The notes: generated by a model not told the origin, from the sequence alone. A DNA stretch of 53,317 bases from an uncultured Caulobacteraceae bacterium (GCA_964395875.1 CAYNCS010000002.1:1-53317), one strand, 5' to 3'; shown: positions 8,998 through 38,349, counted from the stretch's first letter. Numbers and translations: made by a program.

Positions 8998-9576
8998 ATG
9001 TCACTGCGCGGACTTTTCTTCCTTTTTGCGGGCTTGCTCTTTGCGGCCTGCGCTTCAGGCGATCCCTCCGGACGGGTTGAACACGGCACGACGAAGCAGC
9101 TGCAAAGCGCTTCTCTTGAGGATTACAAGCTCGGTCCTGGCGATCGTCTTCGCATCGTCATTTATGACGAGCCGACCCTCTCCAACGAATATGTTGTGAG
9201 TCCAAAAGGCAAAATCGCGTTTCCGCTCGTGGGCGACGTCCAGGCGGAAGGAATGACGATCACGGATTTCTCGCGCGCGCTGGAAACCACGCTGAAGCAG
9301 GGCTTTCTCAAAAATCCTCAGGCCAGCGCCGAAGTGCTGATGTACCGGCCTTTTTATATTCTCGGTCAGGTTCAACGGCCTGGAACCTATCCTTTTGCCG
9401 CGGGCATGACCGTGATGAGCGCGGCCGCAACGGCCGGGGGTTTCACGTATCGTGCGGAGACGCATCGTGTTTTCATCAAGCACGTCGGTCAGGACGCGGA
9501 AGTGGCGTATGATCTGACCAGTCAGACCCCGGTGCAGCCGGGCGACACGGTGAGGATTGGAGAGCGGATTTTCTAG
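8998..9576 (+). CDS. Polysaccharide export outer-membrane lipoprotein (Wza/ExoF/GumB family, short form)
   Basis: Lipoprotein signal MSLRGLFFLFAGLLFAAC. Poly_export-type core YKLGPGDRLRIVIYDEP...FPLVGDVQAEGMT and an SLBB-like C-terminus. Confidence 0.85.
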   Translation: MSLRGLFFLFAGLLFAACASGDPSGRVEHGTTKQLQSASLEDYKLGPGDRLRIVIYDEPTLSNEYVVSPKGKIAFPLVGDVQAEGMTITDFSRALETTLKQGFLKNPQASAEVLMYRPFYILGQVQRPGTYPFAAGMTVMSAAATAGGFTYRAETHRVFIKHVGQDAEVAYDLTSQTPVQPGDTVRIGERIF

Positions 9577-9618
9577 GCGCTGCGTACCGTCGCGGTGGAG
9601 GGGAGCGGACAGCGCCAG

Positions 9619-17602: not shown

Positions 17603-19629
17603 TGTGCGGGATCGCGGGCATAATCGCGGGCGACCGCGCACCGCCGCCGGACATCGGCGCCCTGCAGCGCATGGCGGGCGCGCTGCTGCATCGCGGGCCG
17701 GACGGCGCCGGGTTTTTTCGCGACGATCACATCGGCCTCGCCCACACACGGCTCAGCATTGTCGACCTCGCCGGCGGCGCGCAGCCGATGGCCGATCGCG
17801 ATGAAGAGATCTGGGTGTGCTTCAACGGAGAGATTTTCAATCACGTCGAGTTGCGCAACGATCTCATCGCCGCAGGCCGTGCATTCGCAACCTCAAGCGA
17901 CACCGAAGTGATCATCCAGGCCTACGCCGAATGGGGCGAACGGGCGTGGACGCTGTTCAACGGTCAATTCGCTTTCGCATTGTGGGACAAGCGGCGCCGC
18001 GCCGTCTGGCTGGTGCGGGATCGTCTGGGAATCCTGCCGTTGTATTACGCCGAAACGCCAGAAGGGATCGTATTCGCGTCCGAAGTCAAGGCCATCCACG
18101 CCAGCGGCGCGCTCGCCCGCGAATTCGATCCGGCGGGCCTTGTGGAATCGTTCGTGCGTTGGTCGCCGACGGCGCCGCAAACCGTGTTCAAAGGGGTCAG
18201 GCAGGCGCCGAGCGGCTGCGCGCTCAAGATCGGCATGGATCTGCAAATCGAGGAACGGCCCTATTGGTCGCCGACCCAGGCGCTCGACGCGCCGTGGCGC
18301 GGCGGCGAGGACGAAGCCTGCGACGCGCTGGAATCCCTGCTGGCGTCGTCGATCCGGTTGCGGCTGCGCGCCGATGTTCCGGTCGGCGCCTATGTCAGCG
18401 GCGGTCTGGACTCTTCGGTGATCGGCGTGTTCGCGCGCGAACTATTGGGCGAGGCGCCGCTCGACACATTCGGGATCGGTTTCGAGGAAGAACGCTACGA
18501 CGAGCGGCCGCAACAGCGCGCGATGGCGGACGTCATTCAAAGCCGGCACCATGAAATGATCTGCGCGGGAACGGACATCCGCGCCAGCCTCGACGAGGTC
18601 GTCTGGCACTGCGAGACGCCGCTTTTGCGCACTTCGCCGTCGCCGATGTTTCACCTGTCGCAATCGGTGCGGGACGCCGGCGTGAAAACCGTGCTGACGG
18701 GTGAGGGCGCCGACGAATTGTTTGGCGGCTACACCCTCTTCAAGGAAGATTCGATCCGCCGCTTCTGGGCGCGGCGTCCGGACTCCGCGATGCGGCCGGC
18801 CTTGTTGTCGCGCATCCACCATTATGTGGGGTCGGCGGAAGCGCGCTCGAATGCGTTGTGGCGGGACTTTTTCGGCTATCGCCTGAGCGAGACCGGGCAT
18901 CCGCATTATGCGCATCTGGTGCGCTGGAGGAACAATGCCTGGGCGTTGCGCCTGTTGGCGCCGGAAATCCGCAACGCGATGTCGCCCGAGGCTTTGGAAG
19001 AATCCCTCGCCCGCCGCCTGCCGCAGCATTGGATGGCGTATTCGCCGCTGGAGCGCGCGCAGGTCACGGAGATCCAGACCTTCATGACGCCCTATCTCCT
19101 CGCCTCGCAGGCGGATCGCGTCGCCATGGCGCATGGCGTGGAAGCGCGCTACCCGTTCCTCGATGCGCATCTGGTGGATTTCGCGCTGTCGCTGCCCGCA
19201 AACCTGAAGCTGCAGGGGCTCTCGGATAAAATTCTCCTGCGCAGACTCGCCGCTCGCAAATTGCCGCGCGATCTTTGGGCGCGGAAGAAACAGCCGTTCC
19301 GCGCGCCGATCGCCTCGGCGCTGCTGACGCGCGACAGCCTTGAAGACGTCGCCAATCTGCTCGAAGACAGCACATTGATCGACAAAAAATCCGCTGGGTT
19401 GTTTCTGGATCGCGTGCGCCGCCGCGACGGCCAGGGCCTGGGCGAGCGCGAGGAAATGGGCGTCGCGGGTCTCATCACGACCTGCATGCTGGCGCGGCGC
19501 TTCGGCAAAGAATTCGAAAGCAACATCCAGCGCGGCGTGAACGCCATTTCGCGGCGCGCGCCATCCGTGATGATCGACCGCGCTTGCGCGGCCGTGGGCG
19601 AGGAAAGACGCATTGTGGGGAATCTATGA
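17602..19629 (+). CDS. Asparagine synthase-family glutamine amidotransferase (AsnB-like)
   Basis: Ntn nucleophile MCGIAG at the N-terminus. PP-loop SGGLDSS in the synthetase domain. Its start overlaps the ligase stop. Confidence 0.9.
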   Translation: MCGIAGIIAGDRAPPPDIGALQRMAGALLHRGPDGAGFFRDDHIGLAHTRLSIVDLAGGAQPMADRDEEIWVCFNGEIFNHVELRNDLIAAGRAFATSSDTEVIIQAYAEWGERAWTLFNGQFAFALWDKRRRAVWLVRDRLGILPLYYAETPEGIVFASEVKAIHASGALAREFDPAGLVESFVRWSPTAPQTVFKGVRQAPSGCALKIGMDLQIEERPYWSPTQALDAPWRGGEDEACDALESLLASSIRLRLRADVPVGAYVSGGLDSSVIGVFARELLGEAPLDTFGIGFEEERYDERPQQRAMADVIQSRHHEMICAGTDIRASLDEVVWHCETPLLRTSPSPMFHLSQSVRDAGVKTVLTGEGADELFGGYTLFKEDSIRRFWARRPDSAMRPALLSRIHHYVGSAEARSNALWRDFFGYRLSETGHPHYAHLVRWRNNAWALRLLAPEIRNAMSPEALEESLARRLPQHWMAYSPLERAQVTEIQTFMTPYLLASQADRVAMAHGVEARYPFLDAHLVDFALSLPANLKLQGLSDKILLRRLAARKLPRDLWARKKQPFRAPIASALLTRDSLEDVANLLEDSTLIDKKSAGLFLDRVRRRDGQGLGEREEMGVAGLITTCMLARRFGKEFESNIQRGVNAISRRAPSVMIDRACAAVGEERRIVGNL

Positions 19630-20606
19630 AACCAACAAACGCCTCCATCGGGGCCTTGTCGCCCGACGTGTTCACGCTTGATCGTCCGGCGGAGATCGAG
19701 CGCATCAGCTATTTTCTCAAGCAGTCGGTGCGAAGTCTGAGCCGGCGCGGCCTGGTGATCGGCGTCAGCGGCGGCATCGATTCCGCCGTCTGCGCGGCGC
19801 TGGCGGAGCATTCTTTGGGCCCCAAACGCGTGTTTGGCCTGCTTATGCCGGAACGCGATATGACGGATGACGCCCATGCGCGCGGCGAACGGCTGTGCCA
19901 GAAGCTGGGCATTCCGTACGCTGTGGAGAGCATCGAAGAGTCTCTGGAAGCCATAGCTTGCTACAGCCGTCGCGACGACGCCATCCGGCGCATCGTGCCA
20001 GAATACCAGCGGGATTGGCGGCACAAGATCACGATCAGCCCCGCAGAGAACGACACGATCCCGTTTTTCAATCTGGTGACCCAGGATCCGAAGGGCGAGC
20101 AAACCACGCGGCGCATGCCGCTCGACGTTTATCTGACGGTGGTCGCGGCGACAAATTTCAAACAGCGCATCCGCAAGAACCTGGAATATTACCATGCGGA
20201 CCGTCTGAACTACGCGGTCATCGGAACGCCGAACAAGCTGGAATACGATCTCGGTTTCTTTGTGCGCGGCGGCGACGGGCTCGCGGACGTCAAACCGATC
20301 GCGCATCTCTACAAGAACCAGGTGTACGCCCTGGCCGAAACGCTGGGCGTGACCGAAGAGATTCGCCGCCAGACGCCGAGCACCAACACCTACAGCCTGC
20401 CGCAAACCCAGGAAGAGTTCTATTACGCGCTCGACTACAAGCGGGCCGACCTCGCTTTGTATGCGCTGCTGAACGAAATCGACGCGGCCGCAGCCGCGCC
20501 TGCCTTGGGCCTCACGCCGGAGCAAACAGCTCATGTCTATCGCGACTTTAACGGCAAGCGCCGCGCCGCCGCGCGCGGACTCGCCGATGCGCTCATTATC
20601 GGCTAA
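19626..20606 (+). CDS. NAD+ synthetase-like PP-loop ATP pyrophosphatase (NadE family)
   Basis: The ATG at 19626 overlaps the AsnB-like stop (ATGA). PP-loop VIGVSGGIDSAV. NadE-like downstream blocks (NFKQRIR, GTPNKLE, DVKPIAHLYKNQVY). Confidence 0.85.
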   Translation: MKPTNASIGALSPDVFTLDRPAEIERISYFLKQSVRSLSRRGLVIGVSGGIDSAVCAALAEHSLGPKRVFGLLMPERDMTDDAHARGERLCQKLGIPYAVESIEESLEAIACYSRRDDAIRRIVPEYQRDWRHKITISPAENDTIPFFNLVTQDPKGEQTTRRMPLDVYLTVVAATNFKQRIRKNLEYYHADRLNYAVIGTPNKLEYDLGFFVRGGDGLADVKPIAHLYKNQVYALAETLGVTEEIRRQTPSTNTYSLPQTQEEFYYALDYKRADLALYALLNEIDAAAAAPALGLTPEQTAHVYRDFNGKRRAAARGLADALIIG

Positions 20607-23820: not shown

Positions 23821-24089
23821 AGTGGCGCGGGAATGGGCGGCGCTTCGGCAATCGCCTCTCGACTCAAACAATGGTTTTGGCATTCCGCGGCGGTGGGCCT
23901 AGCTGTGTGGGTGGGCGGATGGCGCTGGGCGCATCTTGTCGGCAATTACGCCTCGCGCGGGACAGGACCTAGGTCGGGCCGCAATGATCGTGATAGGTGA
24001 AGGGTGAAGAAAGCGGGCGCTCCCTCCATGACATCAGTGCGGACCTCTCTGACGGCGCGGCGCACTCTGATTCTCCGGTGCTGACTCAC

Positions 24090-25406
24090 ATGCCGTCCGA
24101 TCTCCCCACGCCGCAAGACGCGCCCATCGCCAGAAGACGTTTCCGTCTGGATGCGACCATTCTACGGAACGTTGCGCTGACCGGCGTTTTGCAGCTGAGC
24201 AATTATGCGCTCGGCTTGCTCACGGTGCCGTATCTTGCGCGCGTCCTGGGCGTGGAGCCTTATGGCGTCCTCGCGTTTTCGATCAGCCTCAACGCCTATT
24301 TATGGATGCTCATCGATTGGGGCTTCACCTTGAGCGCGACCAAGAACGTGGCGCGTCTTCGAGAAGATCCCGAAGCGTTGCGGAAGGTTTTCTGGGAAAC
24401 GATCGAAGCCAAGGCGTTGATCGGCGTTCTCGGTTTGACCTCGGTCGTCGCCGTGTCGTTTGCGGCGCCGGCGCAATACCGCGTACTGATCATTCTCGCC
24501 GGCGTGCTGAACATGCTGGGCTCCATCATTCAGATGGAATGGTTTGCACGCGGGCTTGAAGCGCTTGGCCGCTTCACGACAATGGCCGTCAGCGTGCGCG
24601 TGGTGACCGCTCTTCTGACGTTCCTTATCATTCACAAACCCGAAGATCTCTGGCTCATGCTCTTGCTGCAGGGTCTGTCGGGCTTTCTGATCGGCGCCTT
24701 GAGCTATTGGTACATCCAGCGTCAGTGGCGCTTCGCGCGTGTGGCGCATCCTTTGTCTGTGCTGTGGGCTCAGATATGGGATTGTCGGCACTATTTTCTG
24801 AGCCAGACCGCCGCGATCGGTTACGCCGCCGCCGCGCCTTTAATCCTGAGTCTGGTGTCGAATCCCGCTCAGGTCGGCCTCTACGCCGCCTCCGACAAAC
24901 TCGTCCGCGTCGCACTGATGGTCCTTGCGCCGATCAATCTCGCCATCTACCCGCGGATCAACGCGCTTATGACGAAGAACCCGGCGGCAGCGGCGCGCTT
25001 GGGCGTCATGGCGCTGGGGGCGCAGATGGCGATTGGAATCTGCCTGGCCGGCGGTCTGCAGCTTTTTGCTGATCCGGTGATCAATCTGGTCATGGGCCGC
25101 GCCTTCAACGCGGCGGTGCCAAGCTTTCAGGTGATGGCGCTTTTGCCTGCGCTCGCCGCGGCGAACGGCGTATTCAATCTGCTGTTTCTTTTGCCGCTTG
25201 GGCACAAGGATCTGGTCTCGCGCATCAGCGTCAGAACATTCTTCGCGTTTCTTGTCGCCGCGCCGGTTCTCGGCTGGCGCTTCGGCGCACTTGGCGGCGC
25301 CGTCGCGCTTATCGCCGCGGAGATCGGCATGTTCGTCTGGATGGCCTGGTCGTTGTGGAGCCGAGAACGCGGATACCTGCTCAGCGGACTGCGGCTGCGG
25401 CGCTAG
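24090..25406 (+). CDS. Wzx-type oligosaccharide flippase (MOP superfamily polysaccharide biosynthesis protein)
   Basis: Polytopic membrane protein of about 12 TM. N-terminal region RNVALTGVLQLSNYALGLLTVPYLARVLGVEPYGVLAF is typical of Wzx/RfbX. Start chosen at ATG 24090 (the ORF-track start at 23997 is GTG). Confidence 0.8.
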   Translation: MPSDLPTPQDAPIARRRFRLDATILRNVALTGVLQLSNYALGLLTVPYLARVLGVEPYGVLAFSISLNAYLWMLIDWGFTLSATKNVARLREDPEALRKVFWETIEAKALIGVLGLTSVVAVSFAAPAQYRVLIILAGVLNMLGSIIQMEWFARGLEALGRFTTMAVSVRVVTALLTFLIIHKPEDLWLMLLLQGLSGFLIGALSYWYIQRQWRFARVAHPLSVLWAQIWDCRHYFLSQTAAIGYAAAAPLILSLVSNPAQVGLYAASDKLVRVALMVLAPINLAIYPRINALMTKNPAAAARLGVMALGAQMAIGICLAGGLQLFADPVINLVMGRAFNAAVPSFQVMALLPALAAANGVFNLLFLLPLGHKDLVSRISVRTFFAFLVAAPVLGWRFGALGGAVALIAAEIGMFVWMAWSLWSRERGYLLSGLRLRR

Positions 25407-26485
25407 GCGGCGAAGCTGGAAATGATTTCCAGCAATTGCGCCGCGCTTTTGCGCCAAGTGAATTGGCTGGCGTGCGCCGCGCCTTGCGTCCTCTGCGCCT
25501 CCCATAAAGCGGGTTGCGTTGCGAGGGAACGCATGGCGCCAGCCCATTCCTGCGGAGAGTGCGCGCCGGCGTAGAGCGCCGCCGATCCGCAGACTTCCGG
25601 CAGCGCGCCGCATGGCGCCACGATAGCGGGGCAGCCGGTCAGCATGGCTTCCAGCGGCGGCAGGCCGAACCCTTCCGTCAAGGATGGACAGGCAAAGCAC
25701 AAAGCATCCATCATCAGGCCGCGCATGTCGGAATCGGAGACGCGCCCGGCGAAGATCACTTTGTCGTTTGGCGGAAACCCCGCGGCGGTGAAATCTTCGG
25801 CCTTTGCGCCGCCGATCAGAACCAGACGCATGTCCGCATCGTCCAGGAGTTCGATGGCTTTGAAGAGAAGGCCGATATTCTTGTGCGCCTGGGTGTTTGC
25901 AAGCGCCAGGACGAACTTTCGGGGCGAAAGATTCAGTCTCGCCGCTGCGTCGCACGCAGGCGTCACGCGCAGTATGTGATCGACGCCATTGTGCAGCACG
26001 CGAATCTTTTCGAGCGGCGCGACCTTGTGCTGCGCCAGCATCTGCCGGGAATATTCCGAGACCGTCAGCACGCAGGCGGACCTGTGGCCCAGGGTGGGAA
26101 GCGCGAGCTTGTACCAGGCGACGAACGCCGGCGAATAGGATTCCGGCGTGATGTAGATCTGCGCGTCGTGGATCATGGTCAGCGCGCGCGCCGCCGCCAA
26201 AGGCCCCAGATTGCAGAGATTGACCAGCAAGCCGTCACGGGCACGGACGGGCAGTTCGAGCTGCTCCCACCAGATCCAGGGCAGCTTGCCGGGTTCTGCG
26301 CATTGAATACGCGCGAATCCTCCGACGGCGCCGGCGTTCGACGGCAACAGAATATCCATTGTCTGGCGCGCGCCGGACTCAGCGAGAATGTCGTCCATCG
26401 CGCGCAGCAATTCCTCCGCTACGCGGTGAACGCCGGTCATGTGGGCGGAGTAGAACTTTCCGTTCAGATAGACCGGCAAGGTCAT
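25403..26485 (-). CDS. Glycosyltransferase family 4 (GT-B, retaining)
   Basis: E-x7-E region PSLTEGFGLPPLEAM; 360 aa. Confidence 0.85.
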   Translation of the reverse strand: MTLPVYLNGKFYSAHMTGVHRVAEELLRAMDDILAESGARQTMDILLPSNAGAVGGFARIQCAEPGKLPWIWWEQLELPVRARDGLLVNLCNLGPLAAARALTMIHDAQIYITPESYSPAFVAWYKLALPTLGHRSACVLTVSEYSRQMLAQHKVAPLEKIRVLHNGVDHILRVTPACDAAARLNLSPRKFVLALANTQAHKNIGLLFKAIELLDDADMRLVLIGGAKAEDFTAAGFPPNDKVIFAGRVSDSDMRGLMMDALCFACPSLTEGFGLPPLEAMLTGCPAIVAPCGALPEVCGSAALYAGAHSPQEWAGAMRSLATQPALWEAQRTQGAAHASQFTWRKSAAQLLEIISSFAA

Positions 26486-27645
26486 TCAGCGGCGCGCTCG
26501 AGAGGGCCTGCCAAAGCGCCGTTCACAGAGCGAGGGCGGTTAAGGTCCGCCAAGGCGCCCACGACGCTGGACTGAAACGCAGCGTCGAAATGTTCAGGCG
26601 CGAATCGCGAGACGCTATTTTTGCAGGCTTCCGGAGAAAAATCCGAAAGGAAGCGTTCAAAGTCTTGGATGCCGGCAATCAATCCGTCGATGGAGGGGTC
26701 ATCGAAGAAGCGCCCCGACACGCCGTCTGTGACTGTGTCCAGCGCGCCGCCCCTCTGAAACGCCAGGACCGGCCGGCCGGACGCCATCATTTCGACGGGC
26801 ACGATTCCGAAATCCTCTTCCGCGGTGAAGATCAGTCCTCGCGCCGTCGCATAGGCTTTCTTCAGCGCGGCGTAAGGCAGGTTCTTGGCGAACCGGATGT
26901 TGGAATTCGCTTGCGCCCGCAGTTTGGGCTCCAGCTCGCCGTCCCCCACCATCAGAAGCGGCAGACCCAAGCGGTTGAACGCCTCCACCGCCAGATCAGG
27001 TCGCTTGTAGGCGGTCATCTGTCCGAGCCACAAATAATGCGGTTCCACGTCAGGGGAGATGGAAAATGCATCGACCTCCACAGGAGGAAAAACCACCGCC
27101 GCGTCGCGTCGGTAATATTTGCGAATCCGGCTTGCGATAAAATTGGAATTCGCCATGAAGCGGTCGACGCGCTGCGCGGACGTAACATCCCAGATGCGCA
27201 GATCGTGGGAAAACAAATCCATTCCCAGGCGGGCGACAAGACCTGCGTTCTTCCGATAGAGCGGGGCCTGATCCCACAGATACCGCATAGGAGAGTGGCA
27301 ATAGCAGACGTGCGCGGCGTCGGGTTTCGCTATGACGCCTTTGGCGGGTCCCGCCTCGCTGCTGATCACGAGATCGTATGCGCCGAGATCGAGGGCCTCC
27401 AGGGCGCGCGGCATCAACGGCAGATACTTCTGGTAGTGCCGGGTGGCGCCGGGAAGTTTCTGGATAAAGGTCGTTTGAACGTTCGCGGAGCGAATTCGGT
27501 CGGATACGCGCTCCGGCGCATAAACGTGCGTGAATATGTCGGCGTTCGGATAGAGATTCAGGATTCGCTCAAGCACCCGCTCCCCGCCGCGCATGCCGAC
27601 GAGCCAGTAATGGACGATAGCGACTCTCAATCCCACCCCAACCAC
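26482..27645 (-). CDS. Glycosyltransferase family 4 (GT-B)
   Basis: C-terminal GT1/GT4 motif TAEEDFGIVPVEMMASGRPV. 4-nt overlap with the downstream GT4 gene. Confidence 0.85.
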   Translation of the reverse strand: MVGVGLRVAIVHYWLVGMRGGERVLERILNLYPNADIFTHVYAPERVSDRIRSANVQTTFIQKLPGATRHYQKYLPLMPRALEALDLGAYDLVISSEAGPAKGVIAKPDAAHVCYCHSPMRYLWDQAPLYRKNAGLVARLGMDLFSHDLRIWDVTSAQRVDRFMANSNFIASRIRKYYRRDAAVVFPPVEVDAFSISPDVEPHYLWLGQMTAYKRPDLAVEAFNRLGLPLLMVGDGELEPKLRAQANSNIRFAKNLPYAALKKAYATARGLIFTAEEDFGIVPVEMMASGRPVLAFQRGGALDTVTDGVSGRFFDDPSIDGLIAGIQDFERFLSDFSPEACKNSVSRFAPEHFDAAFQSSVVGALADLNRPRSVNGALAGPLERAAE

Positions 27646-27731: not shown

Positions 27732-28511
27732 TCAGACGCCTTTGGAGGACCCCAGCATCGCCGGGATCGTCTTCAGAATGATCACGACGTCACGCTGCAG
27801 GCTCCAGTTCGCAACATATTCCGCGTCGAGTTCCGTACGGCGTTCGTAGGTCGTGGAATTGCGGCCGCTGACCTGCCAAAGTCCGGTGAGGCCTGGACGC
27901 GCCGACAAATACGCCGCCCGGCGGTCGCCATACCGGAAGAGCTCTTCCTCGGTCACAGGACGTGGGCCGACCAGGCTCATTTCGCCGCGCAGAACGTTGA
28001 TCAATTGCGGCAGTTCATCGAGGCTGGTCTTGCGAAGGATTGCGCCGATTGTTGTGATCCGTGGGTCTTTGCGCAACTTCTGGTCGCGCATCCATTCCTC
28101 GGCGGCTTCCGGGTTCTCGGCCAGATAGCGTTTGAGCCGCACTTCGGCGTCTGGCGCCATGCTGCGGAACTTCAGGCACCGGAAGGCGCCGCCGCGAAAC
28201 CCAATCCGCCGATGACCGAAAAAGACGCCGCCGGCGCCTTGCAGCGCCGCCGCGATAAAGGCCAGCGCGATAAGCGGAAGGGCCAGCAGGATTATCGCGC
28301 TGGCGCCGATGACGTCGAACGCACGTTTTGTTGCGCCGCCGACAGGCTCGGCGGTGACTGCGTTTGGGTAGCGAATGATTTTGGCCGCGGGTCGGGCGAG
28401 CGCCGTTGCGACGGATTGCCGGAGGCTGGCGCGGATGACTTCCGCAAGAAGATCCTTGCGAGGGACGCTCATGGCGACGTCTGCAATCGGCTCGTCGAGT
28501 TTTTCGGCCAT
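27732..28511 (-). CDS. Priming polyprenyl-phosphate sugar-phosphate transferase (bacterial sugar transferase, ExoY/WbaP C-terminal type), copy 1
   Basis: Single TM followed by RIGFRGGAFRCLKFRSM...[33 protein letters not shown]...[13 protein letters not shown]. Start uncertain (28580, 28511 or 28472). Confidence 0.85.
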   Translation of the reverse strand: MAEKLDEPIADVAMSVPRKDLLAEVIRASLRQSVATALARPAAKIIRYPNAVTAEPVGGATKRAFDVIGASAIILLALPLIALAFIAAALQGAGGVFFGHRRIGFRGGAFRCLKFRSMAPDAEVRLKRYLAENPEAAEEWMRDQKLRKDPRITTIGAILRKTSLDELPQLINVLRGEMSLVGPRPVTEEELFRYGDRRAAYLSARPGLTGLWQVSGRNSTTYERRTELDAEYVANWSLQRDVVIILKTIPAMLGSSKGV

Positions 28512-28616
28512 TGTGGTCACCGGCAAATGCAAGTGGAATGGTGAGAAAGTAACGTTCTGAACCGGCAAAATAAAACACAAGAGAACCAGAAGCTACCGGC
28601 GCCTTGGAGACCGCGC

Positions 28617-28830: not shown

Positions 28831-29286
28831 ATGCTCACCGCCCCGGTGGCGCCAATTAAGAGGTATACTGAGGTGATCAGAGAAAAATTGTTGGAGGCCG
28901 CCGCACGCCGCCCCGGTCTCAAACAGTTCTTTCTGTTCGCCGCGGCCGGCGGCGTGGCGACCATCGTCCAATATTGCACCCTGATTGCTCTCGTCGAGAT
29001 AGGGCGAGTCCCACCAACCTATGCGGCTGTTCCGGCTTATATATGCGGCGCCATCACCAGTTATTCGCTGAATCGGCGGTTTGCCTTCACCGGGACAGCG
29101 CGAAGCTCCAGAAGCACCTTTCTGAAGTTCTTTCTCGTGAACCTCATCGGATTGGGCTTGAACACCTTGCTGCTCGGTCTTTTCCTGAAAGCGGGGGCTC
29201 ATTATTTGGTTGGGCAGGCGGCCGCCACGATCCTGGTGCTGTTCTGGAACTTCGCCGGAGCGAAGTTTTTCGCGTTCAGGTCGTAA
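28831..29286 (+). CDS. GtrA-family small membrane protein
   Basis: 151 aa with four hydrophobic segments. GtrA-type signature FFLFAAAGGVATIVQY...NRRFAF...KFFLVNLIGLGLN. Confidence 0.8.
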   Translation: MLTAPVAPIKRYTEVIREKLLEAAARRPGLKQFFLFAAAGGVATIVQYCTLIALVEIGRVPPTYAAVPAYICGAITSYSLNRRFAFTGTARSSRSTFLKFFLVNLIGLGLNTLLLGLFLKAGAHYLVGQAAATILVLFWNFAGAKFFAFRS

Positions 29287-30858
29287 TCAGAAGGGAAGGA
29301 CGCCCGGCGGCATCAGCATAGCCCCGATCATGCACGCGCCGCCGAAGGCGGCCACCGCCCATGATGTGCGGTCCCTGAATGCAAATACGAGCGGATCGTC
29401 GTGCATTTCCCCACGATCCGCCATCAGCCAAACCCGGCAGACCCAAAAAACCACCGCCGCCGGCAAGCCCCAAAGCAAAAACGGCTCATTATAGCGCGCG
29501 GTGATGGAATCATCCTGCAAGTAGAGTGCAAGCACCAGCGCTGACACAAAGCCGGCGCTCACGCCCATCATTTTCAGCATGGCCCCGTCGGTGCTGAAGT
29601 AGGAGCGCCGGCTCAACTCACCACCAGAACGGGCGCGCAAGGCGTCGACCTCCGCCGCGCGTTTGGCCAAGGCCAGATTCAAAAAGAAGAAGCACGAAAA
29701 CGCCAGCAACCAATCGGAGGCGGGATCGCCGGTCGCCTGTCCGCCCAGGATCACACGCAGAGTATAAAGGCTGGCGAGCAGAAACACGTCGATCAACACG
29801 ACCTGCTTGAGCCAAAAAGTATAAAGCGTGGTGGAGACGAGATAGAGAAGAAGAAGACCCAGCACGCCGGCCGCGGAGCCAAGATAGAGACCGATCCCCA
29901 GGAACACGAAAGAGGCCGCAACGCCGGTGACGGGCGACAGCGCGCCGCTCGCGAAGGGGCGCGTCCGTTTCCGGTGGTGGCGGCGATCGGCGTCGATGTC
30001 CGAAGCGTCGTTGATCAGATACACGCTCGACGCCGTGAAGCTGAGCGCCCAGAACGCCGTAAACGCCTGGAGCCAGGACACGGGGTCCATCCAGCCCTGG
30101 CCCACAAGCATGGGCAGAAAAACCAGGACGTTCTTGGCCCATTGCTGCGGACGAATCGCCTTTATGAAAGCGCGCAGCTTGCCGCCATGGGCAGGGAACG
30201 TTTTTTCGACGGGGGCGCTTGCTTGCGCCTGGCGTCCAATGGCCGGTGGTACGCTGACCAGGACGGCGCCGCTAGCTTTCGCCCACACCTTGAGATCGGC
30301 GGCTTCGTTCCCCGCGTATACAAAGCCTTCCGGATACGCAGCCTGGAGCGCGTCCGCCTTGCGATGGGACTTGAGGTTCGTGTCCGTGTCGGAGGCGAAG
30401 ACCGCGGAAAATAATCCCAGGTGCGCCGCGACCCGCTCCGCTTCGCTCCTATGCGACGCCGTTGCGAGAACGACGGTCCGGCCGTCTCCGACTTCATCCT
30501 GCAGCCATGCGACCACGCGATCGTCAAATGGCAGCGATGCCGGATCGCACGGCGAGATCTCGGCGAGTCTGGACTTTACATAGGCTCGGCCCTTTAGGAA
30601 CCAGAGGGCGAGCTCCAAAGCGCGCCAGGGAGAGCGAAACAGGAGACGGAGAAGCGCTTCGACAAATAGATCGGTGCGGATCAGCGTTCCATCGAGGTCG
30701 ACGGCGAGAGGCGGTTTCCCATCGCGGGCTGGAACGGTCCGCGCCGCTGCAACAACCTGCTCATTCACGGTCGTTCTCCTGTTCGCCTTGAAGGCCCTGT
30801 CATCCGGAACGGGAATGGTCATATTCGCCAATACCTGCTCCACCCGCACAGATTTCAT
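29287..30858 (-). CDS. Fusion of a HAD-like phosphatase domain and a UbiA-family polyprenyl-phosphate phosphoribosyltransferase-like domain
   Basis: N-terminal HAD motifs AVDLDGTL, LATAS, GNEAADL. C-terminal UbiA domain with INDASDIDADRRH (NDxxDxxxD), as in decaprenyl-phosphate phosphoribosyltransferase, and multiple TM segments. Confidence 0.85.
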   Translation of the reverse strand: MKSVRVEQVLANMTIPVPDDRAFKANRRTTVNEQVVAAARTVPARDGKPPLAVDLDGTLIRTDLFVEALLRLLFRSPWRALELALWFLKGRAYVKSRLAEISPCDPASLPFDDRVVAWLQDEVGDGRTVVLATASHRSEAERVAAHLGLFSAVFASDTDTNLKSHRKADALQAAYPEGFVYAGNEAADLKVWAKASGAVLVSVPPAIGRQAQASAPVEKTFPAHGGKLRAFIKAIRPQQWAKNVLVFLPMLVGQGWMDPVSWLQAFTAFWALSFTASSVYLINDASDIDADRRHHRKRTRPFASGALSPVTGVAASFVFLGIGLYLGSAAGVLGLLLLYLVSTTLYTFWLKQVVLIDVFLLASLYTLRVILGGQATGDPASDWLLAFSCFFFLNLALAKRAAEVDALRARSGGELSRRSYFSTDGAMLKMMGVSAGFVSALVLALYLQDDSITARYNEPFLLWGLPAAVVFWVCRVWLMADRGEMHDDPLVFAFRDRTSWAVAAFGGACMIGAMLMPPGVLPF

Positions 30859-31014
30859 CGTCGGTGGACGGAAAAAACCTATACCATGGGTATAACGTAA
30901 CCATCACAGCGTAAAATACGTTCGCGCTGGCCGCGTGAAACAGCGCGCTTCTGGATAGCCTTGCTTGTTTGGTCCCCCTGATATCGATAGGTGAGGGCGA
31001 CGGGGGGCAATCAA

Positions 31015-32391
31015 ATGGCGTCTCAAATGCAGGGCCGAGGGCTAAACAAAACCATCGCGGAGGGGTTGAACGCCTTTCACCGCCTTTGGCGCCGCCTTAA
31101 TGACGACCCCGCGGGCAAGATCGTCCTGGCCGGATTCTATATCGTTGCGGCCCTCATTCCCCTGAACGTCGTCCAATATAAATTGCTCGGCTGGTCGACT
31201 TTCCCGGCGTGGAAGGAATGGCTGACGAATTTTCACTTCGGCAATTGGGATTCCTGGGAGCCGATGCGCCAGGCGCTGGCATATGCCCGGACCGACAAAG
31301 CGGGCACACTGTACCAGGAGATTTTCTTCAACCGGCACGTGAAGTTCCAATACGCCCCCACGGCGCTTCTTCCGTTGGCGGCGTTGCAGGGTCTTGGGAT
31401 CAACACCTCCGACGCCTTCCTGAACAATCTGAATCGGTTGCTGGTGCTGGCGAATGCGCTCGGCGTCGGTTTTGTTTTCAGGCTCACGCTCACAAGGACA
31501 ATGGGTGCGGAATATGCGCGCTCGGCAATTGGCGTCGCCGGCGCGATTATGAGCGGCGTTTCCGTATTCGTTTTCTACCCGGTGATGATGGCGTTCTGGT
31601 CCGGGCAAATCCAAATTTGGATCGACCTGTGTTTCACGCTGGCTTGCATAGCCTTTTTGCTGAAGCGGGACGCCACGGCGGGCGTCCTGGTCGGGTTCGT
31701 CTGTTTGCTGAAGCCGCAACTGGCGGTTCTGGCGCTATGGGCGCTCGTGCGGCGCAGATGGCGGTTCATGTTTGGCGCCGCCGCTGTTCTCATTCCCTGC
31801 GGACTCATATCGCTGGCGACTTTTGGGTTGGGCGCGCATCTGGGCTATCTCGAAGTCCTGAGTTTCCTGTCGCGTCACGGCGAAGCCATGATCGCGAATA
31901 ACTCGGTCAATGGAATGCTCAACAATTGGATGGGGATGGCCAATCCCCTGATCTGGGAGGAGCACGGTTTCCCCGCTTACAATCCGATCGTCTATTATGG
32001 CGGGCTATTGGCTGCGGTTCTTCTGGTGGGCGCATCCTTGTGGCCCAAAGCGGGCTCGTCGGAGGTTCTTGGCCTATTCGATTTTCAAGCCGCGGCTTTG
32101 GCCTACACGATGGCGGCGCCGATCGCGTGGGAGCACCATTACGGCATTCTGCCGCCAATGTTCGCGGGATTGGCGGCGGCGCTCGTCAGTGCGCCGAGTT
32201 CCCCACTGGGCGCCAAGAATTTGCTGCTAATGGCGGGCGCGTTCCTCCTGTCCGCCATTTGCATCACATCGCACAAATATATATCCGCCACGCCACTGAA
32301 CTTGCTGCATGGCTATCTCTTCGTCGCAGGGCTGCTGGTGTTGCGGCTGTTATGGGACGCACCCAAAAGCCTTTCGCCCGCGCGGGGTTAA
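31015..32391 (+). CDS. GT-C fold polytopic membrane glycosyltransferase (DUF2029/GT87-like)
   Basis: About 11 hydrophobic segments and no soluble domain. General resemblance to the 36138..37439 protein (e.g. LLKPQLAVLALW vs VTKPPLALFGFF). Start at ATG 31015 after a G-rich RBS (the ORF-track start at 30991 is GTG). Family assignment by architecture only. Confidence 0.65.
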   Translation: MASQMQGRGLNKTIAEGLNAFHRLWRRLNDDPAGKIVLAGFYIVAALIPLNVVQYKLLGWSTFPAWKEWLTNFHFGNWDSWEPMRQALAYARTDKAGTLYQEIFFNRHVKFQYAPTALLPLAALQGLGINTSDAFLNNLNRLLVLANALGVGFVFRLTLTRTMGAEYARSAIGVAGAIMSGVSVFVFYPVMMAFWSGQIQIWIDLCFTLACIAFLLKRDATAGVLVGFVCLLKPQLAVLALWALVRRRWRFMFGAAAVLIPCGLISLATFGLGAHLGYLEVLSFLSRHGEAMIANNSVNGMLNNWMGMANPLIWEEHGFPAYNPIVYYGGLLAAVLLVGASLWPKAGSSEVLGLFDFQAAALAYTMAAPIAWEHHYGILPPMFAGLAAALVSAPSSPLGAKNLLLMAGAFLLSAICITSHKYISATPLNLLHGYLFVAGLLVLRLLWDAPKSLSPARG

Positions 32392-32458: not shown

Positions 32459-33301
32459 TCAGTAGGCGCGCGAAGACGGAAGCAGTTCAGGGACCGTGCG
32501 CAGCACGATTTTGAGGTCACTGAGAAGGGACCAGCGCCGCACATATTCCTCGTCGAGCGCCGTCCGCCGCTCATAGGTTGTAGAATTGCGACCGCTCACC
32601 TGCCAGAGGCCAGTAATGCCAGGGCGCGCCGACAGGTACGAAGTCTTGCGCGACCCATATCGCGCAAGTTCATCCGCGGTGACGGGCCGAGGACCGACGA
32701 GGCTCATCTCGCCGCGCAGAACGTTCAGGAGCTGCGGCAATTCATCCAGGCTTGTCTTGCGAAGAATGCCGCCGATACGGGTGATCCGCGGATCGTGACG
32801 AAGCTTTTGCGTTTCGGCCCATTCGAGCGCCGCTGCTTTATTCGCCGCCAGATGTTCGGCCAAACGGTCTTCGGCGTCGACCACCATCGTGCGGAACTTC
32901 CAGCACGTGAATTCGCGACCCCTGAATCCGACCCGACGATGTCCGAAGAGCAACGGACCCGTGCTGGACAGTTTGGCGCACACCGCGACGGCGAGAATGA
33001 GTGGAGACGCCAGCAGGGCGATGCCGCACACGGCGGCCACATCGACCGCGCGTTTGGCCGCGCCGCCAACCGGCGTTGAGCGTACGGCGGCGTTGGGGTG
33101 ATAGATGATTTCCGCGCTCTCGACGGCCGCGGACTCTGCTGCGGCGCTGGCGAGGTGAATATCCGCCAAGAGATCACGCGCCGACGCAGCCGCCTCCGTT
33201 CGTAGCGGTTGCTCGTCGTTTTTTTCGATTGAATTTGGATTGTAGGCCACTTGGCCCCCCGTATCCCCAACGCTTCTATAATCTACTCGTTCCGGTGGCA
33301 A
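32459..33301 (-). CDS. Priming polyprenyl-phosphate sugar-phosphate transferase, copy 2 (paralogue of 27732..28511)
   Basis: [17 protein letters not shown]...[37 protein letters not shown]...[13 protein letters not shown]. Collinear with copy 1 along its whole length, including the N-terminal extension. Confidence 0.85.
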
Positions 33302-33539: not shown

Positions 33540-34811
33540 TCACTCGCGCGCCGGCGGCAAGGCGACGGGACCGCCGGGATAGAAGCCAATTTCCCTGTAG
33601 GTGACCGCAGACGGAAGACTCGACCGCTCGCGGTCGAAAAGGGCCGGCTTGCGCCCCTTCAAATGAACGTCAAAGAAATCCCGGCTATACAAATTTATGG
33701 CGTTATAAAAATTGATGGGATTGTCCAGGAGCCAAACCCGGGACAAATGCGGCTCCAAAGCAGCATCGCTAAAGCTGGAATGATCGCTCCGCAAGATACG
33801 TACGCCCGCACTGCCGGGGCGCGCCGCCAAATGTATCCGTTCGCGGAACTCACGCGCCAACAAACGTGAGGGATAGCGCTCCTGCGGAGATGACGCGTTC
33901 AGCGCCGCCGCGTCGGGAACAGGATAATCGCGCGTGAAATCAAGATAAGGCGCGCTAACTTTGCCCAGGAGCGCTTGCCCAAAAAGATCGCCGTCGAGGT
34001 TCACAACCGCAGCGATACGTGGATCCAGCGTGGCGGCTTCCGCCGCCGCGGCCCCGCCGATCGAATATCCAAGAAAGCCGACTCGATCAAAATTGACCGA
34101 ACCCAGCCAGTTTGGCGCGGGGATGCGCCTGGCGCAGGCGCTGAGCCGGTCAAGCGCGGCCAACGCTTTCACTGCCTGCAATCGAACGCGTATATCGTTG
34201 AGCGACAAAGTGCGCGCGTATTCTTGGTCCGTGGCGAATGGCCAGTCATGCAGGCGCGCCGCCTCTTCCTCCGGCGTGGCTTCGATCGGAGGATCGAGCC
34301 AGACGTCGTTTAGCGCCACAATGATGTAACCGTGGCTCGCTAGATAAGACACCCGCGCCGAATTGTCGTAGCCGGGCCCGCGAAAATGCGGAGCGTAGAG
34401 AATCGCGCGCGTTGGATCTTCTTCGCGCGTCAGGGGAAGAGCATCCAGCGCTTCACAGGTCTGCACGTCCCGCTCGCTTTGCTTGGCTGCGGCGGGATAC
34501 CAAAGCCGTACATAAATTGGGCCCCGATAAGCGTCCGGCGCATCGCGCGGGAGCGTTACTTCCGCGAAGGCGGGTTGATAAGGGCCATTGGGCGCTAGGG
34601 GGCGAAGTGCAACCAGTGAGGGCGGAACGGCAAAGCCGATGCACAAAAGCATGGCGATTCCGAACATGGAAAGGCGCAATCGCGGATGGCGCGTGATGAA
34701 AGACGGCGGCCGCAGAAGGATGACCGTGCCAATGGCGGCCATAATCGCCGCGGCGAACCAGCCGGAGGCGCCGCTCAGCGCAACGAATATGGCGTCCAGG
34801 AAACCGATCAT
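33540..34811 (-). CDS. Membrane-anchored alpha/beta hydrolase (PAF-acetylhydrolase/dienelactone-hydrolase-like)
   Basis: N-terminal TM helices. Nucleophile elbow VGFLGYSIGGAAA (GxSxG). 423 aa. Confidence 0.7.
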   Translation of the reverse strand: MIGFLDAIFVALSGASGWFAAAIMAAIGTVILLRPPSFITRHPRLRLSMFGIAMLLCIGFAVPPSLVALRPLAPNGPYQPAFAEVTLPRDAPDAYRGPIYVRLWYPAAAKQSERDVQTCEALDALPLTREEDPTRAILYAPHFRGPGYDNSARVSYLASHGYIIVALNDVWLDPPIEATPEEEAARLHDWPFATDQEYARTLSLNDIRVRLQAVKALAALDRLSACARRIPAPNWLGSVNFDRVGFLGYSIGGAAAAEAATLDPRIAAVVNLDGDLFGQALLGKVSAPYLDFTRDYPVPDAAALNASSPQERYPSRLLAREFRERIHLAARPGSAGVRILRSDHSSFSDAALEPHLSRVWLLDNPINFYNAINLYSRDFFDVHLKGRKPALFDRERSSLPSAVTYREIGFYPGGPVALPPARE

Positions 34812-36137: not shown

Positions 36138-37439
36138 GTGCACACGCTTTTGTTTGGGGTTCACCTAATCCTTGCGGTTGCGGCGCTGGCCGGAGTCGAT
36201 CTCTTGTCGCGCCGCAATCTCCTGCCGGACCTGGCGAAGGCGCCATGGATGCTCGCGCTTCTGTTTGCGGCGGGCGCGGCGTTCGTTTTCGTCATGTTGA
36301 GAGCCAGCAGCCCGCCCGCTTACTTTTGGGATTATATCAACGCCTATCATGCGGCCGGCGAAGCCGCGTTGAAACATGACCCGGTGCGGTTACGGGAATT
36401 GATGGCCGTGGGCGCTTATGGCGGCTTCGTGAACATCCCCGGCTATGCGTATGCATTTGCACCCTTTGCGCTGATGCCGGCCAAGGCCGCCGCGATCGTG
36501 TTCAGCATTCTAGGCGTTCTATGCGTGACCTTCGCCTGGCGCATTTTGGTGCGCCTGGCGCACCTGGAACAGCGCGAGCGCTGGCAATTGGCGATCTTGT
36601 TTGTGGTCAGCGGCCCCCTGCTGAACGGCTTCAAGTTCGGAAATCTGAGCTATTTTCTCATTCTCGCTCTGGCGGGGGGATTGGCGCTGCTGCGGGCCAA
36701 GCGGCCGGTCTGGGCCGGAATCGTCCTTGGATTGGCGGCCGTGACCAAACCGCCGCTGGCTTTGTTCGGCTTCTTTTTCCTGTTTCGCCGCGACTTCCGC
36801 GGACTGGCCGGATTTGCGGCGACAGGCATCGCCGCGGTGGCGTTCTCGCTTCTGGCGTTCGGCTGGGAGACGAACCTGTTTTGGTTCGAAACCAGCGTCC
36901 TCAAATACAGTCAGAGCTGGCTGGCGGACTTCTCCGTCCAGTCGATTCCCGCCTTTCTGGAGCGGATCAGCCTGGGCGGCGGTGGAGACTGGGCGCCCAG
37001 AGCGCCGTCGCCATTGGAAAAACTCGTCGCTCAGTCGCTTACGGCGATCATAATCGCCATGGCGGCTTATGCGTGCTGGAAGAACGCGGCCAATAGAGAG
37101 AGCGATCCGCGAGATCGCCTGACGTTGCAATTCCTCATGGTCGTCACCTTGAGCATCGCCGCGAGCCCGTTGTCCTGGGCGCATTATTATATGTGGCTGC
37201 TGGCGCCTGCGGCTTTCTTTCTCGGCTGGCGAGAAGCGCTTTCAAGGCATGAACAGCTTTGGGGCTGGGTTGGAATCGCCTGCATCACGCCGCTCGTGAC
37301 CTGGACGCCGCCGGAGGCGCGGGCGGCGCTGCCAGCGATCTACACGTCCTTTCTTGCGTCGCATTTCCTTTTTGGCGGCTTGATCTGGTTCGGTCTGATC
37401 GCAAGGCGATTGCTCAAGGCCGCCCCTGCTCAAGCGTAG
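36138..37439 (+). CDS. GT-C fold polytopic membrane glycosyltransferase (DUF2029/GT87-like), second copy
   Basis: 433 aa, about 11 TM segments, GTG start. Architecture as for 31015..32391. Confidence 0.65.
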   Translation: MHTLLFGVHLILAVAALAGVDLLSRRNLLPDLAKAPWMLALLFAAGAAFVFVMLRASSPPAYFWDYINAYHAAGEAALKHDPVRLRELMAVGAYGGFVNIPGYAYAFAPFALMPAKAAAIVFSILGVLCVTFAWRILVRLAHLEQRERWQLAILFVVSGPLLNGFKFGNLSYFLILALAGGLALLRAKRPVWAGIVLGLAAVTKPPLALFGFFFLFRRDFRGLAGFAATGIAAVAFSLLAFGWETNLFWFETSVLKYSQSWLADFSVQSIPAFLERISLGGGGDWAPRAPSPLEKLVAQSLTAIIIAMAAYACWKNAANRESDPRDRLTLQFLMVVTLSIAASPLSWAHYYMWLLAPAAFFLGWREALSRHEQLWGWVGIACITPLVTWTPPEARAALPAIYTSFLASHFLFGGLIWFGLIARRLLKAAPAQA

Positions 37440-38349
37440 AATCAGGGTTGGCTGGCGGTTGCGCTTTGGGCGACACGTCATGGCGCGCCAGAAACGACAG
37501 GATATCGCCGAGAATTGGTGCGTTCGATGCGATGGGCAGTCCACCGAAGGCGTCGCGCGTATCGCTGTGGCTGACGGACGGATACAAGATGGCCTCCGCC
37601 TCGCCGCCTTTTTCCCGGACCCTCTTCGCCGCTTCCGGGGAGTTCGACGGTCCGGCCGCGCGATCGTCGGCGCCGACCAACAAAAGCAAAGGCGGAGAGC
37701 GTCCGTCGATATGCGCGTAGGGCTCGGTATAGTCTCTGCCTTCACCGAAAATCGCATGCTCGCGGTCTCCATCGAGCGGCATCATGCTGTACGGTCCCGA
37801 AAGGCCGATGACGGCTTTCACGTCGTTTTTCGGGTCCAGGCCCTCCGCGTCGAGCCAGCGGCGGTCAACGGCGAGACTGAACACGTTGAAGGCGCCGGAA
37901 GAATGCCCCACCAGCACGATCTTGTTGGGATCACCGCCATATTGAGCAATTTTGCGATGCGTCCAGGCGACCGCCGCAGCGTTGTCTTGGAGGAAGAGGG
38001 GCCACAGGCCTTCGGGATAAATGCGATAGTCCGGGATCACTGCGACGAAGCCGCGCCGGGCGAGAGATGCGCCGATCCAGGCGCTTTCTTCCTTGCTGCC
38101 TGAAGCCCAGGCGCCCCCATATATGTAGACAATAACGGGGGCGTCGCCGTCGCCGGCATTTGGAGAATAGACGTCCAGCGACTGCCGCGGTCCGGCTGCA
38201 TAGGCGATGTCGCGCGTGATGTTTAAATCGTGCGTCGACCCAATCGATAAATTGTGGTCGATCTCCGGCTCCGGCGTGCGCCTACAGCCTCCGGCGGACA
38301 TCGCAAAAAAGGCGGTCAGCAGGCAGATCACGGATCGGCGAAGCATCAA
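37414..38349 (-). CDS. Lipoprotein alpha/beta-fold esterase (carboxylesterase/lipase fold-3 type)
   Basis: Lipobox FFAMSAGGC. Oxyanion-region VIVYIYGGAW. Nucleophile elbow LVGHSSGAF. Its 3' end overlaps the convergent GT-C gene by 26 nt. Confidence 0.8.
   Translation of the reverse strand: MMLRRSVICLLTAFFAMSAGGCRRTPEPEIDHNLSIGSTHDLNITRDIAYAAGPRQSLDVYSPNAGDGDAPVIVYIYGGAWASGSKEESAWIGASLARRGFVAVIPDYRIYPEGLWPLFLQDNAAAVAWTHRKIAQYGGDPNKIVLVGHSSGAFNVFSLAVDRRWLDAEGLDPKNDVKAVIGLSGPYSMMPLDGDREHAIFGEGRDYTEPYAHIDGRSPPLLLLVGADDRAAGPSNSPEAAKRVREKGGEAEAILYPSVSHSDTRDAFGGLPIASNAPILGDILSFLARHDVSPKAQPPANPDSTLEQGRP

Follow-up and report, generated by a model that had tools for sequence, protein, structure and literature searches.

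A HAD-UbiA, GtrA and GT87 module in an exopolysaccharide cluster of an uncultured Caulobacteraceae bacterium: a probable system for extracytoplasmic ribofuranosylation

Which pentose does the lipid-linked sugar module of this locus supply, and on which side of the membrane is it used? The locus lies in a 53,317-nucleotide stretch of DNA (the window) from an uncultured Caulobacteraceae bacterium, the rest of whose genome is outside our view. It comprises three neighbouring genes, encoding a small GtrA-family membrane protein, a fusion of a HAD phosphatase with a UbiA-fold transferase, and a membrane glycosyltransferase of the GT-C type (hereafter the adjacent GT-C). The original prediction was that the lipid-linked donor made here may remain a ribofuranose, added to a polymer on the periplasmic face, which for a proteobacterial exopolysaccharide (EPS) would be an unusual chemistry. 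We consider it probable that the three genes form a three-component extracytoplasmic pentofuranosylation system in an EPS cluster of the Wzx/Wza/Wzc type, with a donor that stays ribofuranose. The argument draws on which genes are present and how they are ordered, the identities of their domains, the conservation of catalytic residues and of residues contacting phosphoribosyl pyrophosphate (PRPP), folds, linkage, and the lack of DprE-type genes throughout the 53 kb.

The three open reading frames (ORFs) were found where they had been predicted (Table 1). The GtrA gene ends in a TAA stop at 29284-29286 and the fusion gene, on the opposite strand, in a stop at 29287-29289 (TCA, the reverse complement of TGA). 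Both stops could be read directly, and with 0 nt between them they confirm the proposed tail-to-tail junction at 29286/29287. The adjacent GT-C gene and the fusion gene are divergently transcribed; the database start of the former, 31015 (458 aa), is the probable one. The second GT-C that had been proposed downstream is also present, as an ORF with a match to Pfam GT87.

The fusion protein was matched from end to end by the NCBIfam equivalog NF006088/PRK08238 ('UbiA family prenyltransferase'; 570.3 bits, cutoff 351), residues 46-515 aligning to profile positions 9-481 of 482; as a two-domain protein it thus belongs to a conserved family that is already catalogued. Homologues occur in more than 6000 protein clusters (E≤1e-10), and the best reference-genome match is 58-65% identical; look-ups of the exact sequences of the fusion and of a GT-C from the window returned no record. 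The probable start is a GTG at codon 31 (nt 30768), favoured because AGGAG precedes it and because the resulting 493-aa product resembles homologues of ~489 aa. In the numbering of the full ORF, which is used here, the motifs by which the two domains had been recognised, DLDGT, ATAS, GNEAAD and NDASDIDADRRH, were located at residues 54, 132, 183 and 283, respectively. An AlphaFold (AF2) model of the fusion had a pLDDT of 91.1. The public names of its homologues are misleading ('4-hydroxybenzoate polyprenyltransferase/phosphoserine phosphatase' for several in JGI). Three contigs with a fusion of the proteobacterial type (L019, L029 and L039) are binned as metagenome-assembled genomes of Akkermansia muciniphila, Bifidobacterium and Bifidobacteriaceae; these labels probably reflect bin contamination, not genuine distribution.

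The UbiA domain contains N283-D284-x2-D287-x3-D291-R292, together with K242, Y280, Y346, Y365 and K399-R400-x2-E403. The sole strong match of the fusion in a sequence search of the PDB was Rv3806c of Mycobacterium tuberculosis (E=1.6e-26; next match E=0.003), which was also the best Foldseek match of the AF2 model (TM 0.80). In Rv3806c, PRPP is contacted by Lys28, Tyr70 and Tyr157 (5'-phosphate), Asn73 and Asp77 (Mg2+, ribose), Gln135 (ribose O3) and Tyr138 (PMC10994848). A HMMER alignment equates K28/Y70/Y157 with K242/Y280/Y365, N73/D77 with N283/D287 and Y138 with Y346 of the fusion, and all six of the latter are invariant or near-invariant in homologue alignments down to 35% identity. The NCBIfam models for decaprenyl-phosphate phosphoribosyltransferase (DPPRS; NF008976-8) scored 105-143 bits, below their cutoffs of 207-474; on sequence grounds the fusion is a homologue, not an equivalog, of the mycobacterial enzyme. 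These observations support the predicted Rv3806c-type reading, in which the domain is a PRPP-dependent polyprenyl-phosphate phosphoribosyltransferase and not a quinone or haem prenyltransferase.

Public annotation would instead make the fusion an aromatic prenyltransferase joined to a phosphoserine phosphatase, as the JGI names of several homologues and the generic Pfam UbiA and HAD matches might suggest. The NCBIfam scores effectively refute this: the haem-O-synthase, UbiA and DGGGP-synthase models, with cutoffs above 200 bits, reach at most 44 bits on the fusion, those for haem and quinone enzymes at most 40, against the far higher values of the DPPRS models and NF006088, so that the domain does not group with the quinone or haem prenyltransferases. 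The PRPP 5'-phosphate contacts are kept, and a homologue of the same architecture (ORF15, below) uses PRPP; we regard the annotated function as scarcely credible.

The N-terminal domain carries the four HAD motifs (I, D54-x-D56-G-T58; II, T133; III, K167; IV, G183-N-x3-D188). D54, D56, G57, T58, K167, G183 and D188 are invariant in homologues down to 35% identity, and T133 is kept as Ser or Thr. The modelled domain has a SerB-type HAD phosphatase fold (Foldseek probability 1.00). A precedent for such a fusion is ORF15 of Citrobacter youngae O1, which joins an N-terminal HAD phosphoribose phosphatase (PRP) to a C-terminal UbiA-family polyprenyl phosphoribose synthase (PPPRS) and makes farnesyl-P-ribofuranose from PRPP (Kelly, Duong, Nothof, Lowary and Whitfield, PNAS 2024, PMC11127046). 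In ORF15, the D18A change in the HAD nucleophile causes the 5-phosphate product to accumulate, while N247, D248, D251 and D255 are needed for transfer (PMC11127046). The spacing between the HAD nucleophile and the asparagine of the NDxxD motif is 229 residues in both proteins (D54-N283 here, D18-N247 in ORF15). The invariant motifs, the fold and, by analogy, ORF15 thus support the view that the fused domain is a complete phosphatase, presumably a PRP that removes the 5-phosphate, as had been proposed.

In C. youngae O1 the system makes undecaprenyl-P-ribofuranose for side-chain addition: ORF15, a small transporter (ORF14) and a GT-C (ORF12, the founding member of GT136) add periplasmic alpha-ribofuranose (Ribf) side chains to the O antigen (PMC11127046). 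Only that study and its commentary were found when later literature on the pathway was sought. The window shares with it the PRP-PPPRS donor synthase, with a predicted HAD domain (D54, K167, D188, the fold and the ORF15 spacing) and both the NDxxDxxxD loop and the PRPP contacts, and likewise an adjacent small transporter, here the GtrA gene at 0 nt from the fusion, an adjacent GT-C, and a module free of epimerase genes; in both, PRPP-derived polyprenyl-P-Ribf would be used outside the cytoplasm. The two differ in that the transporter is of the GtrA family in the window and MATE/ArnEF-like in C. youngae. The GT-C accompanying the window's module, predicted from its model, belongs to GT87 and is PimE-like; it lacks an appended carbohydrate-binding module and occurs in two divergent copies, whereas that of C. 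youngae is a GT136 enzyme. Its placement outside GT136 was judged by the GT87 match, with no direct GT136 comparison. Finally, the host pathway of the window, known from its genes alone, looks Wzx/Wza/Wzc-dependent, while C. youngae has an ABC-transporter-dependent O-polysaccharide. The supplement to the 2024 study lists candidate loci with MATE or 'SMR' (GtrA/Rv3789-type) transporters, including a Rhizobium strain (PMC11127046); the record of Rhizobium sp. CCGE531 that the study cites was not among the plasmid matches listed.

Among the candidate systems described with C. youngae, those for arabinofuranose (Araf) glycans carry DprE1/DprE2 homologues, and those for xylofuranose (Xylf) glycans an epimerase of the ORF13 type, a short-chain dehydrogenase/reductase (SDR) (PMC11127046). 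The DprE1- and DprE2-like genes located behind a HAD-UbiA fusion and GtrA on a Rhizobium leguminosarum plasmid were used as seeds, each having its best PDB match in the expected protein (DprE1, E=1.5e-84; DprE2, E=3.9e-29). A six-frame tblastn search of the whole window with these seeds returned nothing better than E=0.7, and Pfam and NCBIfam scans of its candidate ORFs and of the gaps in the gene map detected neither protein. The remaining gaps yielded a Wza-like exporter, an NAD-synthase-like protein and SGNH hydrolases, and no oxidoreductase besides GalE (below). The predicted lack of a neighbouring DprE1/DprE2 pair thus extends across the 53 kb, which is also devoid of an SDR epimerase inside the module, the gene content of the ribofuranose subtype.

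To place this absence in context, we assembled a census of 90 loci (80 genomic fusion loci plus plasmid and metagenome loci), searched by iterative hidden Markov models (HMMs) on all six-frame ORFs. In the 42 loci where DprE1 was detected, it was never more than ~450 nt from the fusion gene and in most cases abutted it; DprE2 usually lay ~1.1-1.4 kb away (range 0.1-2.8 kb). Sixty loci had 4 kb or more of sequence to either side of the fusion: 26 encoded DprE1 and DprE2, 4 DprE1 only, and 30 neither. Among these 30 epimerase-less loci, a GtrA gene was adjacent (≤100 nt from the fusion gene) in 11 and a small EamA-type transporter in 10. In a neighbour-joining tree of the fusion proteins, the window falls in a clade of 17 terminals. 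Its members include a metagenomic twin with 92% identity (L001; JGI contig Ga0116255_10004326), together with L003, L011 and loci from Caulobacterales/Hyphomonadaceae. DprE1/DprE2 were found within 10 kb in none of these 17 loci, which are related and so do not count as independent events; GtrA is adjacent in most. Since DprE1 is encoded beside the fusion wherever it was detected, and the clade has none, we read the absence of the pair as meaningful; the pattern is what is expected of a true ribofuranose subtype.

Some census loci showed further oxidoreductase arrangements. GMC-family FAD oxidoreductases recur beside HAD-UbiA/GtrA/GT87 modules devoid of DprE genes (L003, 4143-5588; L172, 2827-4464, 10559-12184 and 16497-17446), accompanied in L172 by a 481-aa epimerase-family protein and a second GtrA. 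In those loci they could serve to oxidise or epimerise the lipid-linked pentose by another route; as an alternative oxidase for the window's module they were rejected, the window having none. In four Nitratireductor/Mesorhizobium loci (L059, L075, L077 and L087), a DprE1-like gene abuts the fusion, DprE2 was undetected by HMM, and a small EamA-type transporter lies 1.2-1.5 kb away; these may use a different reductase or stop at the keto-pentose.

The only SDR in the window is a canonical GalE, a UDP-glucose 4-epimerase of the extended SDR type. It is not DprE2-like, and it is encoded at the margin of the polysaccharide cluster, 22 kb away from the module. The named WbaP members in NCBIfam use galactose-1-phosphate and both initiating transferases of the cluster are of the WbaP type, so the supply of UDP-Gal is a simple explanation for this gene, and probably its role. 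One alternative is that the same module operates on a lipid-linked ribose that is first epimerised, to Araf by unlinked DprE1/DprE2 or to Xylf by an SDR such as this GalE (6256-7251). About half of the fusion-bearing loci carry DprE1/E2, 53 kb of a genome with no close reference are visible, the C3 epimerase ORF13 shares GalE motifs, and the GT-C of the ORF13-bearing system accepts both Ribf and Xylf (PMC11127046). Yet the DprE1 genes detected in the census were close to the fusion in 42 of 42 cases, and none was found within 10 kb in any of the 17 clade loci. As for the SDR, it scores far above the GalE cutoff (406 vs 262 bits), UDP-Gal supply accounts for it at its distance of 22 kb, and ORF13 of C. 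youngae O2, which resembles GalE at the motif level only, is encoded inside its own module. We therefore consider prior epimerisation unlikely and retain the unmodified ribofuranose as the probable donor.

Both GT-C proteins exceeded the Pfam GT87 (PF09594) gathering score of 25 (49.5 and 118.8 bits). A PDB sequence search with the two gave no match, and the fold of the adjacent GT-C was therefore predicted. Its AF2 model, built with 56 homologues, had a pLDDT of 93.3 and a pTM of 0.93. The top Foldseek match was PimE (GT87; 9dm5; E=1.2e-7, probability 1.00, TM up to 0.69), followed by GPI mannosyltransferase I (PIG-M), ALG6, ALG9 and ArnT; all of these are GT-C enzymes using polyprenyl-monophosphate sugars. 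A D-S-W motif (D87 of the ORF) is near-invariant; it directly follows the first long helix and falls within what is predicted to be the first periplasmic loop, the location of the catalytic Asp in GT-C enzymes.

Homologues of the adjacent GT-C keep similar company. One that is 86% identical stands in a syntenic locus beside a HAD-UbiA gene; another, 54% identical, belongs to a syntenic cluster with the fusion gene 7 kb off. A 42%-identical Ramlibacter homologue has, ~8 kb away at the edge of the locus, a gene that faintly matches GtrA, and a 34%-identical one is the third gene of a HAD-UbiA -> GtrA -> GT87 operon. GT87-type genes also occur near the fusion in one Acetobacteraceae and one Paraburkholderia locus of the census. 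We regard the adjacent GT-C as a candidate periplasmic ribofuranosyltransferase and the GtrA protein as a candidate flippase for polyprenyl-P-pentose. The public name of the GT87 partners, 'alpha-1,2-mannosyltransferase', is misleading.

A different scenario would have the GT87 proteins act as ordinary transferases of polyprenyl-P-mannose or another hexose, with the fusion and GtrA serving a separate acceptor (lipopolysaccharide core, lipid A or protein). The nearest solved GT87 structure, PimE, is indeed a mannosyltransferase, the second GT87 (36138-37439) weakly matches the PimE-type NCBIfam model (37 bits), and some fusion-GtrA pairs, such as that of Viadribacter (L004), stand outside polysaccharide clusters. 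Domain scans of the window's ORFs with Pfam and NCBIfam, however, detected no polyprenyl-P-hexose synthase of the GtrB, ArnC or Ppm1 type; the GT2 proteins present are EpsD/HfsG-like, and the ArnC model gives 22.8 bits against a cutoff of 529. The subfamily of the adjacent GT-C is moreover linked to HAD-UbiA and/or GtrA in the four contexts described above, down to 34% identity and including one co-directional operon, as are GT87-type genes in the Acetobacteraceae and Paraburkholderia loci. This scenario seems to us quite improbable, and a ribofuranosyl donor for the adjacent GT-C remains the preferred reading.

The second GT-C is barely alignable with the first (E=0.002 only), and the two therefore probably differ in acceptor or linkage; the second may add a second pentofuranosyl residue or serve a different acceptor or linkage. 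A counterpart of it is present in the syntenic metagenomic contig L001 (1325-2629), where it is split between two predicted ORFs (284 and 148 aa), pointing to a frameshift, premature stop or assembly error.

In the mechanism that we propose, the fused HAD domain would remove the 5-phosphate to give polyprenyl-P-beta-D-ribofuranose, and the sugar would stay ribofuranose, no C2 or C3 epimerase being encoded with the module. The adjacent GtrA would then move the lipid-linked sugar to the periplasmic leaflet, where the adjacent GT87-type GT-C, and probably also the second one 5 kb away, would transfer ribofuranose onto the already flipped polysaccharide, in alpha linkage if the GT-C inverts like PimE. 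The lipid carrier, the phosphatase activity, the flippase role, the sugar, the acceptor and the anomeric outcome are what we infer from the genes. The census clade devoid of DprE genes and, by analogy, the Citrobacter precedent support the original prediction as to a donor that stays ribofuranose and is added periplasmically. Each proposed step matches the biochemically characterised C. youngae system, so that the predicted mechanism is an established one. The view that it would be unusual for a proteobacterial EPS did not hold up: the pathway was described in 2024 and called widespread in Proteobacteria (PMC11127046).

Several points weigh against this reading. Gln135 of Rv3806c, which contacts the ribose O3, corresponds to Thr343 in the fusion, and the Pfam HAD score of 25.8 bits is slightly below the gathering score of 27. 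A GalE-family SDR is encoded in the same extended cluster, and the Xylf-forming ORF13 is likewise GalE-like at the motif level. Only the 53 kb contig is in view, with no close reference genome, and unlinked epimerase genes are possible, which is why the sugar is something we infer. The functionally named GT87 relatives that were found are all mannosyltransferases (the PimE fold match and NF009915), so that gene linkage is the sole ground for assigning a donor specificity. More generally, the sugar and the synthase activity proposed for this organism are read from its genes. That linkage nevertheless points to a pentofuranose donor, and the mycobacterial Araf transferase AftC is likewise classed in GT87, although no statement to this effect was found in the papers searched.

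The mycobacterial decaprenyl-P-arabinose pathway has a homologous phosphoribosyltransferase with the same PRPP contacts, a GtrA-family protein (Rv3789-like) and GT-C enzymes (Aft/Emb there) that use polyprenyl-P-pentofuranose outside the cytoplasm. There, however, the 5-phosphatase is a separate protein, Rv3807c, unrelated to the HAD-family PRPs, whereas here it would be the fused HAD domain; no PAP2 domain was detected by Pfam or NCBIfam in any scanned ORF of the window. The window's enzyme misses the DPPRS equivalog cutoffs (143 vs 207 bits), its lipid carrier would presumably be C55 instead of C50, and, DprE1/DprE2 being absent, no arabinose is expected.

An alphaproteobacterial counterpart is found on the R. 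leguminosarum plasmid NZ_CP016289 (L009, 9001-14746), where a 35%-identical HAD-UbiA fusion is followed by GtrA. This locus differs in having genuine DprE1/DprE2 directly downstream, with arabinofuranose as the predicted sugar, and as partner a 518-aa multi-pass membrane protein that is not GT87. Homologues of its fusion are present on 32 Rhizobium plasmids, the neighbourhood having been inspected in NZ_CP016289 alone; no characterisation of this arabinose-type set was found in the literature searched. The Gtr systems that glucosylate the Shigella and Salmonella O antigens resemble the window in that GtrA and a GT-C draw on a polyprenyl-monophosphate sugar for decorating a periplasmic polymer, but their donor synthase is the GT2 enzyme GtrB acting on UDP-hexose, while here it is of the UbiA fold, predicted to use PRPP, with a phosphatase domain. 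The adjacent GT-C is structurally closest to PimE (9dm5/9dm7), with which it shares the conserved Asp past the first long helix; at 18-20% identity, PimE transfers mannose from polyprenyl-P-mannose to phosphatidylinositol mannosides, as opposed to the pentofuranose donor and polysaccharide acceptor predicted here.

The polysaccharide cluster around the module spans ~6.2-38.3 kb (Table 1) and is of the Wzx/Wza/Wzc type, probably Wzy-dependent. The two WbaP-type transferases, each a 280-aa protein with a single transmembrane (TM) segment, are 59% identical and flank the GtrA/fusion/GT87 module; this arrangement suggests a local duplication, or two glycans sharing decoration machinery. From its context, we assign to the first (27732-28580) the initiation of the polymer to be decorated. 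The cluster also holds a GT2-like protein.

Table 1. Features of the window discussed in the text
Feature	Coordinates	Strand	Size, domains and scores
GalE (canonical UDP-glucose 4-epimerase), extended SDR	6256-7251	-	331 aa; TIGR01179 406 bits (cutoff 262); Pfam Epimerase 191.7 bits
Wza-like exporter	8998-9576		Poly_export/SLBB
Wzc-like proteins (two)	9595-11208; 12972-15413		Wzz/GNVR/AAA_31
12-TM protein, may be polymerase	11215-12846		
Wzx-type flippase	23997-25406	+	Polysacc_synt 109.5 bits
Two GT4 proteins	25403-27645		GT4 domains
Small WbaP-type phosphoglycosyl transferase	27732-28580	-	Bac_transf 200 bits
GtrA-family small membrane protein	28831-29286	+	151 aa; Pfam PF04138 (GtrA_DPMS_TM) 84.6 bits
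HAD-UbiA fusion	29287-30858	-	523-aa ORF; Pfam UbiA 67.1 bits, HAD 25.8 bits
UbiA-fold domain of fusion (putative phosphoribosyltransferase)	29314-30177	-	residues ~228-515
HAD phosphatase domain of fusion (predicted)	30184-30723	-	residues ~46-225
Adjacent GT-C, multi-pass membrane protein	30991-32391	+	466 aa; Pfam GT87 49.5 bits
Second small WbaP-type phosphoglycosyl transferase	32459-33301	-	Bac_transf 208.6 bits
Second GT-C, multi-pass membrane protein	36138-37439	+	433 aa; Pfam GT87 118.8 bits

Other genes of the cluster were also noted. The region 16058-20606 (+) encodes an acyl-CoA ligase whose closest specific model is the exosortase-A-associated TIGR03098 (422 bits, cutoff 592), followed by an asparagine-synthase-family amidotransferase resembling the XrtA/PEP-CTERM type (TIGR03108, 395 bits, below cutoff) and an NAD-synthase-like ORF; no exosortase was seen in the window. 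Two ORFs are of the hydrolase type: one (33540-34811, -) has N-terminal TM segments and a GYSIGG serine motif and is without a Pfam match, and the other (37414-38349, -) is BD-FAE/carboxylesterase-like. A possible role for both is that of polysaccharide O-acyl esterases or transferases. The esterase that neighbours a PQQ dehydrogenase is conserved as well in two related contigs, L001 and L170. The 3' end of the window carries aroA and cmk, and another ORF begins there; this points to a chromosome. No reference genome has an AroA more than 59% identical, and the best matches include Caulobacteraceae and Rhodobacterales, so the host is an alphaproteobacterium that is uncultured and lacks a close sequenced relative.

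Taken together, the module is a further member of the type of system described in 2024 and not new chemistry; the GtrA transporter, the two GT87 GT-Cs and the EPS context are modest variations, that of the transporter having been anticipated by Kelly et al. It shows that raw sequence suffices to recognise, in an alphaproteobacterium that is uncultured, the pentofuranosylation route from PRPP to lipid-linked ribose, and the 90 loci provide a practical rule, namely that the lack of DprE1/DprE2 beside a HAD-UbiA gene predicts ribofuranose. A GT87 subfamily is also flagged as a likely pentofuranosyltransferase partner. Somewhat more tentatively, and with a little less than even confidence, we suggest that both GT87 enzymes are polyprenyl-P-ribofuranose-dependent ribofuranosyltransferases that place two distinct pentofuranosyl decorations on a Wzx/Wzy-made alphaproteobacterial EPS. 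If this is true, GT87 would gain a new donor specificity and a new class of acceptor, and the 2024 pentofuranosylation paradigm would extend from O-antigen side chains to Wzy-dependent EPS and to environmental Alphaproteobacteria.

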